Origin: a virus
Lineage: Duplodnaviria > Heunggongvirae > Uroviricota > Caudoviricetes
Length of the DNA stretch: 12,167 nucleotides
Direction: 5' to 3' (one strand)
Virus record (IMG/VR): IMGVR_UViG_2744054912_000005
In this document: in pieces, positions 5,839 through 10,799 of the stretch
Layout of the letters: each line of letters starts with the position of its first letter
How positions within the stretch are numbered: position 1 is the stretch's first letter
Notes under the pieces: model-generated
Told to the model about the DNA's origin: nothing
The model's input: only the letters and a program-made list of their open reading frames with translations
The model's database searches: none
Translations under genes and position numbers: made by a program

Positions 5839-5935
5839 ATGCCCTCCAAATATTGCGCGTTATGCATGTTATTTCACGCAATTATTTTGCGCAAGTTGAT
5901 TTGCTTATCACGCAATAAAGAAATGTAATAAACGC
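5839..5935. promoter_or_regulatory. OR region: divergent PR/PRM promoters with TTGC-N7-GCAA operator sites
   Basis: Operator-like 15-mers TTGCGCGTTATGCAT (5853-5867) and TTGCTTATCACGCAA (5901-5915) plus the palindromic core TTGCGCAA (5887-5894). Candidate PR for cro on the minus strand: -35 TTGCGC (5894..5889), 17-bp spacer, -10 TAACAT (5871..5866). Confidence 0.6.
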
Positions 5936-6628
5936 ATGAACATAGGAAACCGAGTCAGACAACTTCGCCAAGCGAAGAACATGAAAATCGCCGATCTCGC
6001 TGAAGCAATAGGAGTAGATGCGGCGAACATCTCGCGCTTAGAAACGGGTAAGCAAAAACAATTTACCGAACAAACACTGAGTAATATTGCCAAGAGCTTA
6101 GGTGTTGATATTGCTGATCTCTTTACCTCTGCCCACAAAAGTAATACTGTATATAAAAACAGTAATAATGAGGATGTTGCGCAGGTGAAGGATGTGTTCC
6201 GTATTGAAATGCTGGATATCAGTGCCAGTGCGGGAAATGGCCTTATCCAGGGCGGTGATGTCATTGATGTGATTCATGCCATCGAATACAGAACTGATAA
6301 TGCTGTATCAATGTTCGGCGGACGACCAGCCAATCACATCAAAGTTATCAACGTTCGTGGGGACAGTATGTGTCCAACCATTGAGCCAGGAGATCTCATC
6401 TTCGTTGATGTCAGCATCAATCAGTTTGATGGTGATGGTATATATGTCTTTGGTTTTGATGACAAAATATACGTTAAAAGACTTCAAATGATTCCTGACA
6501 AACTGCTGGTGATTTCTGATAACCAGATTTACCGTGAATGGGGAATTACTAGCGAAAACGAACACCGATTCATGGTCTTTGGAAAGGTCTTAATCAGTCA
6601 GTCGCAAACCCTTAAGAGACATAATTAA
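5936..6628 (+). CDS. Phage CI-type repressor (N-terminal XRE HTH, C-terminal S24 LexA-like autopeptidase domain)
   Basis: 230-aa ORF. HTH NRVRQLRQAKNMKIADLAEAIGVDAANISRLETGK; candidate Ala-Gly cleavage site in ISASAGNGL; catalytic Ser in VRGDSMCPTIEPGDLIFVD and Lys in IYVKRLQ, as in LexA and lambda CI. Confidence 0.9.
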   Translation: MNIGNRVRQLRQAKNMKIADLAEAIGVDAANISRLETGKQKQFTEQTLSNIAKSLGVDIADLFTSAHKSNTVYKNSNNEDVAQVKDVFRIEMLDISASAGNGLIQGGDVIDVIHAIEYRTDNAVSMFGGRPANHIKVINVRGDSMCPTIEPGDLIFVDVSINQFDGDGIYVFGFDDKIYVKRLQMIPDKLLVISDNQIYREWGITSENEHRFMVFGKVLISQSQTLKRHN

Positions 6629-6647: not shown

Positions 6648-6670
6648 GGCCACCGAAAGGTGGCTTTTTA
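6648..6670 (+). terminator. Intrinsic terminator downstream of cI
   Basis: GGCCACC-GAAA-GGTGGCT hairpin (6-7 bp stem, GAAA tetraloop) followed immediately by TTTTT, 20 bp after the cI stop. Confidence 0.8.
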
Positions 6671-6682
6671 TTACCTATAAAT

Positions 6683-6733
6683 TTGCATATATCGCAAATA
6701 TCACTTGCATATCTCGCAATTTAATTTTATCTT
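6683..6733 (+). promoter_or_regulatory. OL/PL-like region: two 15-bp palindromic operators and a candidate rightward promoter
   Basis: TTGCATATATCGCAA (6683-6697) and TTGCATATCTCGCAA (6705-6719), centre-to-centre 22 bp, sharing the TTGC-N7-GCAA form of the OR sites. Candidate promoter: -35 TTGCAT (6705-6710), 17-bp spacer, -10 TATCTT (6728-6733). Confidence 0.6.
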
Positions 6734-6889
6734 TTGTTCCAGACCAACTACAGGATTACAACAAAATCTGGTTGCAACACGGTGCATGTGTCGTAAGCAG
6801 TCAGTAAATGTCAAAAACGAACAGGCAGGACGCCCACGAAGTAGCCGCCTGGGGCATATGAAGTCCAGGATGATTCGTTAGCAACAAAA

Positions 6890-6922
6890 AAGCGCCCTAC
6901 AGGACGCTTAGCTCTTTAACAA
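6890..6922 (+). promoter_or_regulatory. nut-like antitermination element: short hairpin followed by an rrn-type boxA
   Basis: GCTCTTTAACAA at 6911-6922 is identical to the E. coli rrn boxA core (TGCTCTTTAACAA). It is immediately preceded by an imperfect hairpin AAGCGCC-CTACA-GGACGCTT (6890-6909) and lies about 45 nt upstream of the first early-left gene. Confidence 0.55.
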
Positions 6923-6967
6923 TCTGGTCCCCATCAACAAGTAACTGATAACTTGAGGAGATGTGAA

Positions 6968-7174
6968 ATGCACAAAACAGAACCCAAAATCGTCGCGCCT
7001 GGCTACACAGATGAGGAAATTTATGAGTGGATGACAAAGAAGCTGGCAGCTATAAACCAGCTTCGTGAAGTGCTGTCTTATCGACAGGAAACAATAGACT
7101 CCTTAAAAAAACTGGATCAGGAAATCACGGTTTTATCACAGGATGTTACTTTAGATATTGTGCAGACAAATTAG
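6968..7174 (+). CDS. Hypothetical 68-aa protein (first gene of the early-left transcript); no recognisable domain
   Basis: ATG at 6968 preceded by GAGGAG at 6955-6960; the TTG at 6953 in the ORF track is a less likely start. Predicted helical, charged protein MHKTEPKIVAPGYTDEEIYEWMTKKLAAINQLREVL... in an AT-rich segment. Confidence 0.55.
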   Translation: MHKTEPKIVAPGYTDEEIYEWMTKKLAAINQLREVLSYRQETIDSLKKLDQEITVLSQDVTLDIVQTN

Positions 7175-7580
7175 GATCCCATTCATTTTCGTCAAAATCA
7201 TCAAAGTGATGAATTTGTGATCTCCAGTCTCGATAATCTAAAAATTTCTGGGCGGTTACGCTTATTTTATCAAGTGTGAGTTCATCCTGAATTGAAAGAA
7301 GAAGTTCATCAAATTTCATCTCATTAATCTGTTTTGGCATCCAGTGATGCTTCATCAGAATAAGGTGAACCAGAGCCTTTTTCCCATTCAATTGATTATA
7401 GGGAGTGCCGAATTTCTTCCGGTGCTCATGTAAGACAAGGTCCAAAAGAGTAAGTAATGTTGCCCTTGATTCAACTTTGCTTATTTCGACTGATGACACT
7501 ACCCCACTGATTTCAATGCCCCGATACTTTCCAACATTTTCACAGTGGGATTTGTACAGCGTATAGATATTACCGGACAT
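7146..7580 (-). CDS. Hypothetical 144-aa protein, antisense to the early-left transcript; no recognisable domain
   Basis: ATG at 7580 with RBS AAGGA upstream. AT-rich. The 3' end overlaps the convergent 68-aa gene by 29 bp (7146-7174). Soluble, with no transmembrane segment evident. Confidence 0.55.
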   Translation of the reverse strand: MSGNIYTLYKSHCENVGKYRGIEISGVVSSVEISKVESRATLLTLLDLVLHEHRKKFGTPYNQLNGKKALVHLILMKHHWMPKQINEMKFDELLLSIQDELTLDKISVTAQKFLDYRDWRSQIHHFDDFDENEWDPNLSAQYLK

Positions 7581-7595: not shown

Positions 7596-7645
7596 GTTGT
7601 TGGGGATAACCAGATTAACCGAATCCTTGTTGTTGGGGAATAACT
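7596..7645. repeat. Two direct copies of a 15-16-bp motif (GTTGTTGGGGATAAC / GTTGTTGGGGAATAAC) upstream of the 144-aa gene
   Basis: Seen directly at 7596-7610 and 7630-7645, spacing 34 bp, within 20-65 bp upstream of the 7580 start codon on the minus strand. Confidence 0.5.
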
Positions 7646-7864
7646 AGGTCCACCTCGCCTGATGTGGCTAAAAGCAGGCACATAACAGCTAAGTATTTTC
7701 AACCAGAGAGAATCCTTAGCGTTGTGGTGAATGCGGCTCAGCGCACGCGGGTTAAGGTTGAGGCTGACAGTCGACCTTCTGTGGATACCCACCCGCCTGG
7801 TGTGCAACCTTCGCCAGGCACCGGGAGGCACCCGGCACCACAACTTTATGCTGTGTGTAGTCCT

Positions 7865-7912
7865 GGCGGTACCAGTTTGTACCCTTGCTTCCGGCTGGTA
7901 CCGTCCTTTTTA
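7865..7912 (+). terminator. Intrinsic terminator-like hairpin with T-run at the end of a GC-rich non-coding stretch
   Basis: CGGTACCAG (7867-7875) pairs perfectly with CTGGTACCG (7895-7903), extendable to 7865/7905, followed by CTTTTTA (7906-7912). The 19-nt loop contains further GTACC self-complementarity. Confidence 0.55.
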
Positions 7913-8000
7913 CAAAACAGAGAAGAGCATCACCGGACGACGGGCTCATAACCCAATCCATCCGGGCGGCTGCCACCGCAGGTGTTCTTCTCTGTTTTGT
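7912..8000 (+). other. Long hairpin / inverted repeat: 18-bp stem (17 Watson-Crick pairs plus 1 G-U) enclosing a ~50-nt GC-rich loop
   Basis: ACAAAACAGAGAAGAGCA (7912-7929) is complementary to TGTTCTTCTCTGTTTTGT (7983-8000) with a single G-T wobble. It lies in non-coding sequence between the terminator-like hairpin and the YfdR-like gene. Confidence 0.5.
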
Positions 8001-8124
8001 GGAGAAACTAACCGCCCCTACGGGGGCATTTATGGAAATGTAATTGACTCAATAATCGCCGGACGGTGATGGCTTCCTTTTACCCGAATTCAGCGCGGTG
8101 CAGCGCATATACGTGGAGAACAAA

Positions 8125-8661
8125 ATGTCATTTATTAAAACTTTTTCCGGGAAGCATTTTTATTATGACAGGATAAATAAAGACGACATCGTTATTAACG
8201 ATATCGCGGTTTCCCTTTCAAATATCTGTCGCTTTGCAGGACATCTTTCACACTTCTACAGTGTCGCCCAACATGCGGTGCTTTGCAGCCAGCTGGTGCC
8301 GCAGGAATTTGCTTTTGAAGCTTTAATGCATGATGCAACAGAAGCATATTGCCAGGACATCCCCGCACCACTGAAACGACTTCTTCCTGACTATAAACGG
8401 ATGGAAGAAAAAATAGACGCCGTAATCCGTGAGAAATACGGGTTACCTCCTGTTATGAGCACGCCAGTGAAATATGCCGATCTCATTATGCTGGCAACCG
8501 AACGCCGCGATCTCGGGCTTGATGATGGCTCTTTCTGGCCTGTGCTGGAAGGTATCCCGGCAACAGAGATGTTCAACGTGATTCCACTGGCTCCAGGCCA
8601 TGCCTACGGGATGTTTATGGAACGCTTTAACGAATTATCGGAGTTACGCAAATGCGCATGA
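8125..8661 (+). CDS. yfdR: HD-domain phosphohydrolase, YfdR-like 5'-deoxynucleotidase
   Basis: 178-aa ORF from ATG 8125 (GGAG RBS 7 nt upstream) with the HD-domain motifs H...HD (HFYSVAQHAVL...ALMHDATEAY). The sequence closely matches my recollection of E. coli CPS-53 prophage YfdR (MSFIKTFSGKHFYYD...). Confidence 0.75.
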   Translation: MSFIKTFSGKHFYYDRINKDDIVINDIAVSLSNICRFAGHLSHFYSVAQHAVLCSQLVPQEFAFEALMHDATEAYCQDIPAPLKRLLPDYKRMEEKIDAVIREKYGLPPVMSTPVKYADLIMLATERRDLGLDDGSFWPVLEGIPATEMFNVIPLAPGHAYGMFMERFNELSELRKCA

Positions 8662-9014: not shown

Positions 9015-9319
9015 TGACCACTTTTACCGACAAAGAACTGATTAAAGAAATTAAAGAGCGTATCAGCAGCCTTGACGTGCGAGACGATATTGAGCGCCGT
9101 GCTTATGAAATCGCACTCCTATCTCTGGAAGTAGAACCAGATGAACGCGAAGCTTATGAATTATTCATGGAAAAGCGTTTTGGTGACTTAGTAGATCGTC
9201 GGAGAGCAAAAAACGGCGATAACGAATACATGGCATGGGATATGACTCTCGGTTGGATCGTCTGGCAGCAACGAGCTGGTATCCATTTCTCAACAATGTC
9301 ACAGCAAGAGGTGAAATAA
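9014..9319 (+). CDS. Hypothetical phage protein (YfdT-like)
   Basis: 101-aa ORF whose ATG overlaps the upstream stop as TAATG, with GGAGG RBS. Size and synteny match YfdT. Confidence 0.5.
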   Translation: MTTFTDKELIKEIKERISSLDVRDDIERRAYEIALLSLEVEPDEREAYELFMEKRFGDLVDRRRAKNGDNEYMAWDMTLGWIVWQQRAGIHFSTMSQQEVK

Positions 9320-9669
9320 TGGAGCCATACAGCCTCACACTCGATGAGGCCTGTCATTTTCTCAAGATATCCAGACCGACTGCCATTAACTGGATACGCA
9401 CAGGGCGTCTTCAGGCAACACGCAAAGATCCCACTAAGAATAAATCTCCTTACCTCACAACACGACAAGCCTGCATTGCGGCTCTTCAGTCTCCGCTGCA
9501 TACTGTCCAGGTGAGCGCGGGTGATGGCATAACAGAGGAAAGAAAATGTCACTCTTCCGCAGAGGTGAAATATGGTACGCCAGTTTCACATTGCCGAACG
9601 GTAAAAGATTTAAACAGTCTCTTGGAACAAAGGACAAAAGGCAGGCGACAGAACTCCATGACAAGCTAA
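9319..9669 (+). CDS. Excisionase / AlpA-family HTH DNA-binding protein (Xis-like)
   Basis: ATG at 9319 overlaps the upstream TAA. The N-terminal [26 protein letters not shown] is a typical excisionase/AlpA HTH motif. Open to 9669, overlapping the integrase start by ~124 nt in another frame. Confidence 0.6.
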
Positions 9670-10723: not shown

Positions 10724-10799
10724 TGGTGCCGATAATAGGAGTCGAACCTACGACCTTCGCATTACGAATGCGCTGCTCTACCAACTGAGCTATATCGGC
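10724..10799 (-). tRNA. thrW: tRNA-Thr (anticodon CGU)
   Basis: Minus-strand sequence GCCGATATAGCTCAGTTGGTAGAGCAGCGCATTCGTAATGCGAAGGTCGTAGGTTCGACTCCTATTATCGGCACCA folds as a cloverleaf with anticodon loop TTCGTAA (CGU), T-loop GGTTCGACTCC and 3' CCA. It sits beside proA as thrW does in E. coli. Confidence 0.9.

Follow-up and report, generated by a model that had tools for sequence, protein, structure and literature searches.

A predicted three-way-junction RNA with an initiator-tRNA-like hairpin in the early-left leader of SfII-like lambdoid prophages

Introduction

RNase III stalks, which are long stems enclosing a structured RNA, excise the rRNAs, and RNase III sites also lie behind metY in the metY-nusA-infB operon. 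In phage lambda, an RNase III site was reportedly described by Kameyama in 1991 in the N leader, the nutL-N portion of the early-left (pL) operon. A second lambda hairpin, sib, lies downstream of int and acts from the 3′ end on read-through RNA from pL. A different use of leader structure is seen in the thrS operator, an mRNA operator that mimics a tRNA anticodon arm. In HK022, an N-less lambdoid phage, both early operons carry the put sites, cis-encoded structured RNAs of ~70 nt that form two stem-loops with irregular stems and conserved bulges and have no closing helix; putL lies just downstream of PL (PMC9378689). Here, an RNA element is described in a 12,167-nt stretch of viral DNA from the class Caudoviricetes (IMG/VR record IMGVR_UViG_2744054912_000005; hereafter the window, to whose + strand coordinates refer unless stated otherwise). 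The element is marked by a near-perfect inverted repeat (7912-7929 and 7983-8000) that lies upstream of the genes yfdR, yfdS, yfdT, xis and int.

In the predicted fold, this inverted repeat is the closing stem of a folded RNA of ~100 nt, a three-way junction with one closing helix (P1) and two inner hairpins (P2 and P3). Its working appears most like that of a leader processing site. As in the lambda pL leader, a long hairpin stands in the untranslated early-left RNA just upstream of the first gene, and both structures are expected to act after transcription. The element differs from the lambda site in that the two have no sequence relationship, the element forms a three-way junction with a conserved interior, and its cleavage is a prediction. 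Moreover, it is accompanied by neither an N gene nor a nut site: the features of a lambda-type N/nut system were not found, and no N gene is annotated in the closely related locus L001, mEp460, SfII or Stx2a_WGPS2. The comparison with sib made in an earlier annotation of the window from its letters and open reading frames (the sequence-only reading) fails on position. Although both are RNase III-type hairpins linked to integration-gene expression, the element is located in the 5′ leader ahead of yfdR-yfdS-yfdT-xis-int, ~1.5 kb before int, and is also found before unrelated first genes. Because of this location, the lambda feature that it resembles more closely is the RNase III site of the N leader.

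Like putL, the element is a cis-encoded structured RNA just past pL in an N-less lambdoid phage, with irregular stems and conserved bulges, but it is a single-copy three-way junction and usually follows a terminator instead of preceding one. Identity with put was rejected, since neither inspection of the HK022 pL-putL region nor a search with the covariance model of the element (R1) revealed a relationship. With the thrS operator, the element shares its place in an mRNA leader, but the gene downstream of it encodes no tRNA synthetase.

Results

The inverted repeat closes a three-way junction

The sequence ACAAAACAGAGAAGAGCA (7912-7929) is complementary to TGTTCTTCTCTGTTTTGT (7983-8000) through 17 Watson-Crick pairs and one G·U pair (G7927·U7985), and the repeat begins right after a terminator T-run (7907-7911). 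Both observations agree exactly with the sequence-only reading, and a repeat search extends the arms to 25 nt. The statement that so long a stem is rare by chance is also borne out. With the count set at 18 nt, at most one mismatch and a loop of 3-100 nt, one such inverted repeat is present in the window and none in 40 first-order Markov simulations, and the chance expectation is ~1e-3 by our own arithmetic. RNAfold adds the pairs U7930·G7982 and C7931-G7981, which brings P1 to 20 bp between a purine-rich 5′ arm (7912..7931) and a pyrimidine-rich 3′ arm (7981..8000), each 2 nt longer than first read. Five weak pairs between the T-run and the sequence GGAGA (8001-8005) extend the base of this helix to a total of 25 pairs (RNAfold, 7905-8035). 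The fold energy is -63.2 kcal/mol, compared with -35.3 ± 3.3 kcal/mol for shuffled sequences (z = -8.5), and none of 200 shuffles folds as well.

The ~50 nt between the arms had been described as a GC-rich loop. This region is no loop: it folds into P2 (7933..7965), a nearly invariant hairpin with an irregular stem, and P3 (7966..7979). With these two hairpins inside P1, the complete element (7907..8005, + strand) is a three-way junction whose closing helix has a weak base, as predicted by RNAfold, RNAalifold and R1. This structured and highly conserved interior was overlooked in the sequence-only reading and is the most informative part of the element. P3 varies in both sequence and length, from 14 to ~41 nt across the family, and through it the length of the element ranges from 94 to 121 nt among 77 unique variants (a 27-nt range). 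Three of the four closing pairs of P3 nevertheless show compensatory changes. R1, which was built from 24 lineages, scores the window at 116.3 bits (7905-8007, + strand).

Covariation supports an RNA on the + strand

Pairing was evaluated in an alignment of the 24 lineages prepared with MAFFT and in an alignment of 83 distinct sequences to the covariance model, the latter being biased towards structure by its construction. In the 24-lineage alignment, 93.9% of cells are paired and nine pairs are changed on both sides, a covariation score that is reached by 0/500 shuffles; when the partner columns are slid, pairing falls to 36-48%. The corresponding values for the 83 variants are 95.5% paired cells and ten pairs with double changes, again with 0/500 shuffles reaching the covariation score, and sliding the partners by 1-3 columns leaves 36-50% of cells paired. 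Examples of compensation among the 83 variants include G-C versus C-G at 54:28 and C-G versus A-U at 48:27. An identical fold is predicted independently by RNAalifold. The check that had been proposed for the inverted repeat, namely that related prophages keep both arms and show compensatory changes, thus has a clearly positive outcome.

Within P1, all 20 pair columns are filled in the 83 variants without a single insertion or deletion, 95.4% of cells are paired and six pairs are changed on both sides. The 11th of the 20 pairs, at the centre of the helix, is a single unpaired position in 50/83 variants, and the uninterrupted stem of the window is therefore the rarer form. On the + strand, the alignment contains 43 G·U cells versus 17 A·C cells. 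This wobble asymmetry indicates an RNA on the + strand, in agreement with transcription from pL. A protein-binding or recombination site in the DNA, which had been offered as another explanation of the repeat, is unlikely because the arms covary and because the 43 G·U cells are C·A mismatches on the opposite strand.

No conserved open reading frame (ORF) spans the element in the 77 unique variants. Their length classes (94, 95, 96, 97, 98, 102, 113 and 117-121 nt) are not spaced by multiples of 3, and every frame is closed by a stop codon in 10/77 variants. Based on these two features, the ORFs annotated over the element are probably spurious; as judged from sequence, ymfH of K-12, SfII_35 and a PGAP 'frameshifted' pseudogene are probably not proteins. 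Such ORFs cover both the element and the STnc100-like RNA that precedes it in e14 (ymfH, L004 2327-2638), in the window (7724-8043) and in SfII (SfII_35, L189 4332-4670). Overexpression of a 'ymfH' clone triggers RcaT, the toxin of retron-Sen2 (preprint 10.1101/2020.06.22.160242), and this effect might stem from RNA instead of protein. The element also lacks the features of a miniature transposon or insertion sequence, as a single copy is found per phage at one syntenic site.

In Rfam release 15, only tRNA-Thr matches are found in the window at the gathering threshold. Over the element, the only matches at E <=10 are chance ones to MIR1094 (18 bits) and to the Hairpin-ribozyme (- strand, 14.5 bits), and no match is obtained for the hairpin in four related loci. 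The element is in no Rfam family, and the known category to which it belongs is that of structured leader RNAs in phage early operons. No description of it was found in a limited full-text search of the literature, which is no proof of novelty.

Hairpin P2 resembles the anticodon arm of initiator tRNA

The top of P2 (7942-7954) is the 13-nt stem-loop GGGCUCAUAACCC, which E. coli initiator tRNA-fMet has in identical form at positions 29-41. It consists of three consecutive G:C pairs, a hallmark of initiator tRNA, and the loop CUCAUAA, in which the 'anticodon' CAU occupies 7947-7949. When the flank is included, a local alignment of P2 with tRNA-fMet has 16/17 identical positions, and 0/2000 shuffles score as high; since the resemblance was noticed after the fact, these statistics overstate it somewhat. 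The tRNA-fMet query was verified by its 100% match to annotated tRNA-Met genes in all 5426 E. coli genomes (median of 4 places per genome).

By sequence comparison, the top of P2 is the most constrained part of the element. Its three G:C pairs are invariant in the 83 variants and form the sole stem that never covaries. The exact 13-mer is present in 60/77 unique elements, and UCAU is kept in 75/77. When homologues were sought with a pattern that allowed any loop bases, all true homologues apart from e14 (UUAAUAA) and one further variant (CUUAUAA) proved to keep U33-C34-A35-U36 (tRNA numbering), and loop positions 32, 37 and 38 are variable. The copy is confined to the top of the anticodon arm: ARAGORN calls no tRNA at the element, so that no cloverleaf of acceptor, D, anticodon and T arms is present, and its sole call in the window is tRNA-Thr (10724-10799). 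Descent from tRNA-fMet beyond the anticodon arm was rejected, as the local alignment ends after 17 nt. A cis antisense target of the conserved loop was likewise sought by k-mer complementarity within 2.5 kb in 25 lineages, with nothing consistent found.

The element lies in the early-left leader

The window contains a lambdoid prophage inserted at thrW, next to proA; in this region, it has 99% identity with Shigella phage SfII. The prophage is SfII-like and N-less, and the element is part of the 5′ leader of its pL operon. Q, the replication genes, the cII-like gene ymfL and the cro-like gene ymfT form a block on the - strand. The cI-like repressor gene ymfK (5936-6628, + strand) and its terminator (6648-6665) are followed by an inferred oL/pL (6683..6733, + strand), with the operator repeats TTGCATATATCGCAA and TTGCATATCTCGCAA, a -35 hexamer TTGCAT (6705-6710) and a -10 hexamer TATCTT (6728-6733). 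Matching operator-like repeats are found at 5850-5915, in the cI (ymfK)-cro (ymfT) interval; the assignment of the putative promoter is our own reading of the sequence. After pL, the order is a moron cassette, the STnc100-like RNA, its terminator, the element, yfdR, yfdS, yfdT, xis and int, and this order places the hairpin in the 5′ leader of the early-left operon. The first gene downstream, yfdR (5′-deoxynucleotidase; 8125..8661, + strand), is taken from the annotation of L001, which is 99.8% identical; int is followed by attR at the tRNA-Thr gene thrW.

Across the family, the element always follows closely downstream of the repressor gene, within the immunity region, and its strand is the one that leads into the early-left genes. 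In locus L078 and in Mixta (L139), it begins ~25-35 nt past a promoter flanked by operator repeats and directly follows the repressor terminator, an arrangement that shows its place in the pL leader. The first gene after the element is yfdR in the window, yfdP in ST64B, mEp460 and LLS, xisE in e14, and others elsewhere. The specific control of the integration and excision genes that had been proposed for the repeat is thus not upheld: the element is tied to the pL leader in front of varying first genes, and its link to int and xis is incidental.

A terminator-ending cassette lies between pL and the element in 70/77 unique variants, with its T-run abutting the 5′ arm of P1. These cassettes are STnc100-like or of other kinds, and their terminator stems differ among lineages. 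In the window, the STnc100-like structured RNA (7691..7913, + strand) matches Rfam RF02076 with 43.1 bits (E = 9e-8; gathering score 47). Its intrinsic terminator, read directly from the sequence, has a stem at 7866-7876 / 7895-7905 and a T-run at 7907-7911, and its 18-nt loop is unusually long. The terminator U-tract doubles as the base of P1, but the hairpin lies outside the STnc100 model, and the element occurs without an STnc100-like RNA in L078, L139 and L031. The STnc100-like counterparts in ST64B, e14, Klebsiella and LLS also score under the Rfam gathering score, and these sub-threshold scores point to a pL-leader branch of the STnc100/PasD family that is missed by standard annotation. 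This family is prophage-borne (bioRxiv 10.64898/2026.05.13.724894). In contrast to the RNA in the window, PasD and many STnc100-family copies are located in the late region next to Q, and one STnc100 copy is found just downstream of stx2.

Other features of the leader were also observed. The segment 7597-7650 repeats the last ~50 nt of the repressor gene (6518-6552) in two blocks with 93-94% matches, and by its sequence looks like a relic of the 3′ end of a second repressor gene. This relic and an inverted repeat (6921-6940 / 7597-7616) flank a moron of the ECs1072 family (7146-7580, - strand) and a small ORF (6968-7174), a layout that suggests insertion of the moron cassette into an originally shorter pL leader. 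Just after the putative pL start, a conserved hairpin, CCAGACC...AAAATCTGG (~6741-6772), is shared with mEp460 (L002 ~31395-31360, - strand). As the only conserved structure upstream of the strong STnc100-like terminator, this hairpin would be the place to look for any resistance of pL transcripts to termination.

A second conserved module follows the element

Directly 3′ of P1, the Shine-Dalgarno-like sequence GGAGAAAC (8001..8008, + strand) is single-stranded and can pair weakly with the upstream U-tract. Its GGAGA is present in 63/64 unique downstream variants, the exception being GGGGA, and this conservation includes lineages without an upstream T-run. It is followed by a small G+C-rich hairpin (8014..8027, + strand) with the loop YGCAG in most relatives and CUACG in the window. 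This combination of GGAGA(A)AC and a small hairpin with a covarying stem is a second module found in nearly all lineages (8001-8027 in the window; loci L002-L187), and its layout recalls a nut site, although an N-like protein is not annotated. No AUG is found at Shine-Dalgarno spacing after GGAGA. A split Shine-Dalgarno sequence serving a small ORF was considered and rejected because the reading frames are inconsistent between lineages.

Distribution of the element

The module at 7900-8025 is found with 83-99% identity in SfII, SfIV, SfV, mEp460, cdtI, 2H10, ST64B, LLS, Stx2a- and Stx2c-converting phages, Klebsiella phage Kp4866-6 and the K-12 prophage e14, where it sits inside the annotated gene 'ymfH'. 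In a BLAST search with 7900-8100, 3045/5426 complete E. coli genomes were matched, some of these matches covering only the yfdR-proximal part. The median was 2 matching places per genome, which are taken as separate prophages. Pattern scans identified the element in 120 viral contigs and, in a survey of one genome per species, in the Enterobacterales genera Escherichia, Shigella, Citrobacter, Enterobacter, Kosakonia, Mixta, Atlantibacter, Buttiauxella, Leclercia, Pseudescherichia, Pseudocitrobacter, Erwinia and Klebsiella. R1 finds exactly one copy per phage, always at one syntenic position. A possible second, putR-like copy was rejected: the two places per record seen at first vanished when the query was trimmed to the element, the second place being the region upstream of yfdR.

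In L079 (IMGVR_UViG_2609459834_000002, 9207-9334), a recombinant copy combines a 5′ arm of the window type with the P3 and 3′ arm of another lineage, so that several P1 pairs are broken and the crossover falls inside the invariant P2. Judged from its sequence, this copy shows that the conserved core P2 is used as the joint at which leader modules recombine. L146 ('Chryseobacterium sp. 18061') and L159 ('Geobacteraceae MAG') contain copies of enterobacterial type with typical flanks, which most likely reflect contamination or mis-binning of the assemblies.

Discussion

Based on the modelled structure, P1 may be a processing stalk of the RNase III type, located in the pL leader, through which the tRNA-like inner domain is released or presented; this is the reading that we prefer, tentatively and with limited confidence. 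Transcripts that read through the STnc100-like terminator, or that start at pL in lineages without that cassette, would fold P1, and RNase III, a double-strand-specific nuclease, would cut within it. Such cleavage would detach the early-left mRNA from the RNA upstream and define its 5′ end, and with it the stability and translation of this mRNA. It would also release or present an inner domain with the invariant hairpin that copies the anticodon stem-loop of initiator tRNA. The substrate valley of RNase III holds ~22 bp (PMC6212723), and the continuous helix of 20 bp, or 25 bp with the five weak pairs, fits the suggestion made in the sequence-only reading that the hairpin is an RNase III-type substrate, cleavage itself being predicted. 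The presence of exactly 20 pair columns without indels in 83 variants, while P3 varies by 27 nt, suggests that the length of the helix is measured and that it does not serve stability only. The mismatch at the centre of P1 is where an RNase III dimer would be expected to cut. Since the T-run abuts the 5′ arm in 70/77 variants, read-through RNA that was cut in P1 would end at almost the same 3′ position as terminated RNA.

Several points weigh against this processing function. A mere stalk does not explain the near-invariance of P2, the conserved GGAGA or the YGCAG hairpin. The fixed helix length would be equally explained if P1 were a rigid spacer, and the central mismatch could lower cleavage instead of directing it. 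In addition, the main text of the K-12 study of RNase III (PMC6212723) does not mention e14 or prophages.

The conservation of P2 is addressed directly by a rather unlikely proposal, made from sequence, in which the functional core is P2, imitating the anticodon stem-loop of initiator tRNA, and P1 does no more than support it rigidly at a constant length. P2 might then sit in the P site of the 30S subunit, possibly with help from the Shine-Dalgarno-like GGAGA next to P1, and in this way regulate or shield the leader. It might instead compete with tRNA-fMet for MetRS, or for a tRNA-fMet-cleaving toxin such as the enteric VapC, for which the RNA would serve as a decoy. This proposal is compatible with an RNase III stalk. 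It draws on the 13-nt identity to tRNA-fMet 29-41 (16/17 with the flank; 0/2000 shuffles), on G:C pairs that stay fixed in 83 variants while the other stems covary freely, on the retention of U33-C34-A35-U36 in all but e14 and one variant while 32, 37 and 38 vary, and on a GGAGA that is conserved even where it has no U-tract partner. The copy is imperfect, however, as only 3/5 anticodon-stem pairs are reproduced and the next positions are mismatched. tRNAs carry a purine at position 37, but this position is U in several lineages, and the VapC cleavage site, at 38/39, varies between lineages. The lack of an AUG at Shine-Dalgarno spacing after GGAGA and of a conserved complementary target within 2.5 kb argues further against it, as does the post hoc nature of a resemblance seen in sequence alone. 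With regard to the toxin, VapC of Salmonella and Shigella cleaves the anticodon arm of tRNA-fMet (PMC7180214), and these same genera host ST64B and SfII, SfIV and SfV, which carry the element.

HK022 put promotes read-through of terminators that lie beyond it, through binding to the zinc-binding domain of the RNA polymerase beta' subunit. By analogy with put, the element has also been considered as a cis-acting antiterminator, or as the RNA part of a nut-like site, that acts on polymerase leaving pL. A termination-resistant polymerase would explain early-left expression in N-less phages, and the absence of N has been reported for SfII, SfV and SfIV (PMC3851460). The element occupies the position of putL or nutL in the lineages with the shortest leaders, ~25-35 nt after pL, the linear motif GGAGAAAC and the small hairpin behind it, whose loop is conserved, are laid out like a nut site, a put-like mechanism was suspected by the authors of the LLS study (PMC12315714), and the mEp phages were collected as Nus-dependent (PMC11893012). 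This function is nonetheless unlikely, given that the element has no similarity to HK022 putL, that R1 finds nothing in HK022, and that each phage has one copy and none in the pR operon. Furthermore, the only strong terminator of the pL operon lies upstream of the element. A simple consensus scan, which also misses that strong STnc100-like terminator, found 6 terminator-like sites downstream versus 3.0 expected from shuffles, and 15 versus 8.8; the excess is modest and none of the sites is strong, which argues weakly against antitermination. In the 3′ arm, the boxA-like UGCUCUU is engaged in pairing and covaries with the 5′ arm, which indicates that it is not read as sequence, and the boxA/boxC resemblance of this arm was rejected on that ground. 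A generic structural insulator or stabiliser, which would hide a pyrimidine-rich Rho-loading tract or block exonucleases with no specific partner, is consistent with the pyrimidine-rich 3′ and purine-rich 5′ arms, with the long untranslated leader and with a location between an RNA that has its own terminator and the first coding gene. It is improbable, since a generic fold would keep neither >=13 bases invariant across >=13 genera nor a helix of exactly 20 bp. Far less credible is the absence of any RNA element, with the repeat being a DNA-level site (a protein-binding palindrome, an att-like or other recombination site, or a miniature transposon) or part of a coding sequence (YmfH or a 'hypothetical protein'). 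ORFs are indeed annotated over the element (ymfH in e14, SfII_35 and the 'frameshifted' pseudogene in L001), and integration classically takes place at the anticodon loops of tRNA genes. Against this stand the element lengths of 94-121 nt that are off multiples of 3, the closure of all frames in 10/77 variants, the covariation of arms that keep no binding sequence, the 43 G·U versus 17 A·C cells, the occurrence once per phage at one syntenic position, and the integration of the prophage at tRNA-Thr and not at tRNA-fMet.

Phages of the SfII, SfV, ST64B, e14 and mEp460 types include Shigella serotype-converting and Stx2-converting phages. For this group, the element provides a defined, covariation-supported RNA at the very regulatory position that is relevant to early-left expression in the absence of N. 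It is a bold and doubtful suggestion that a widespread family of enterobacterial temperate phages carries, in the first RNA made from pL, an initiator-tRNA anticodon mimic mounted on a 20-bp strut that engages a reader of tRNA-fMet. If this suggestion is true, engagement of the 30S P site would result in cis control of initiation or in ribosome capture, and engagement of VapC would make the RNA an anti-toxin decoy. A functional copy of the anticodon arm of initiator tRNA would then represent a new kind of tRNA mimicry in bacteria.

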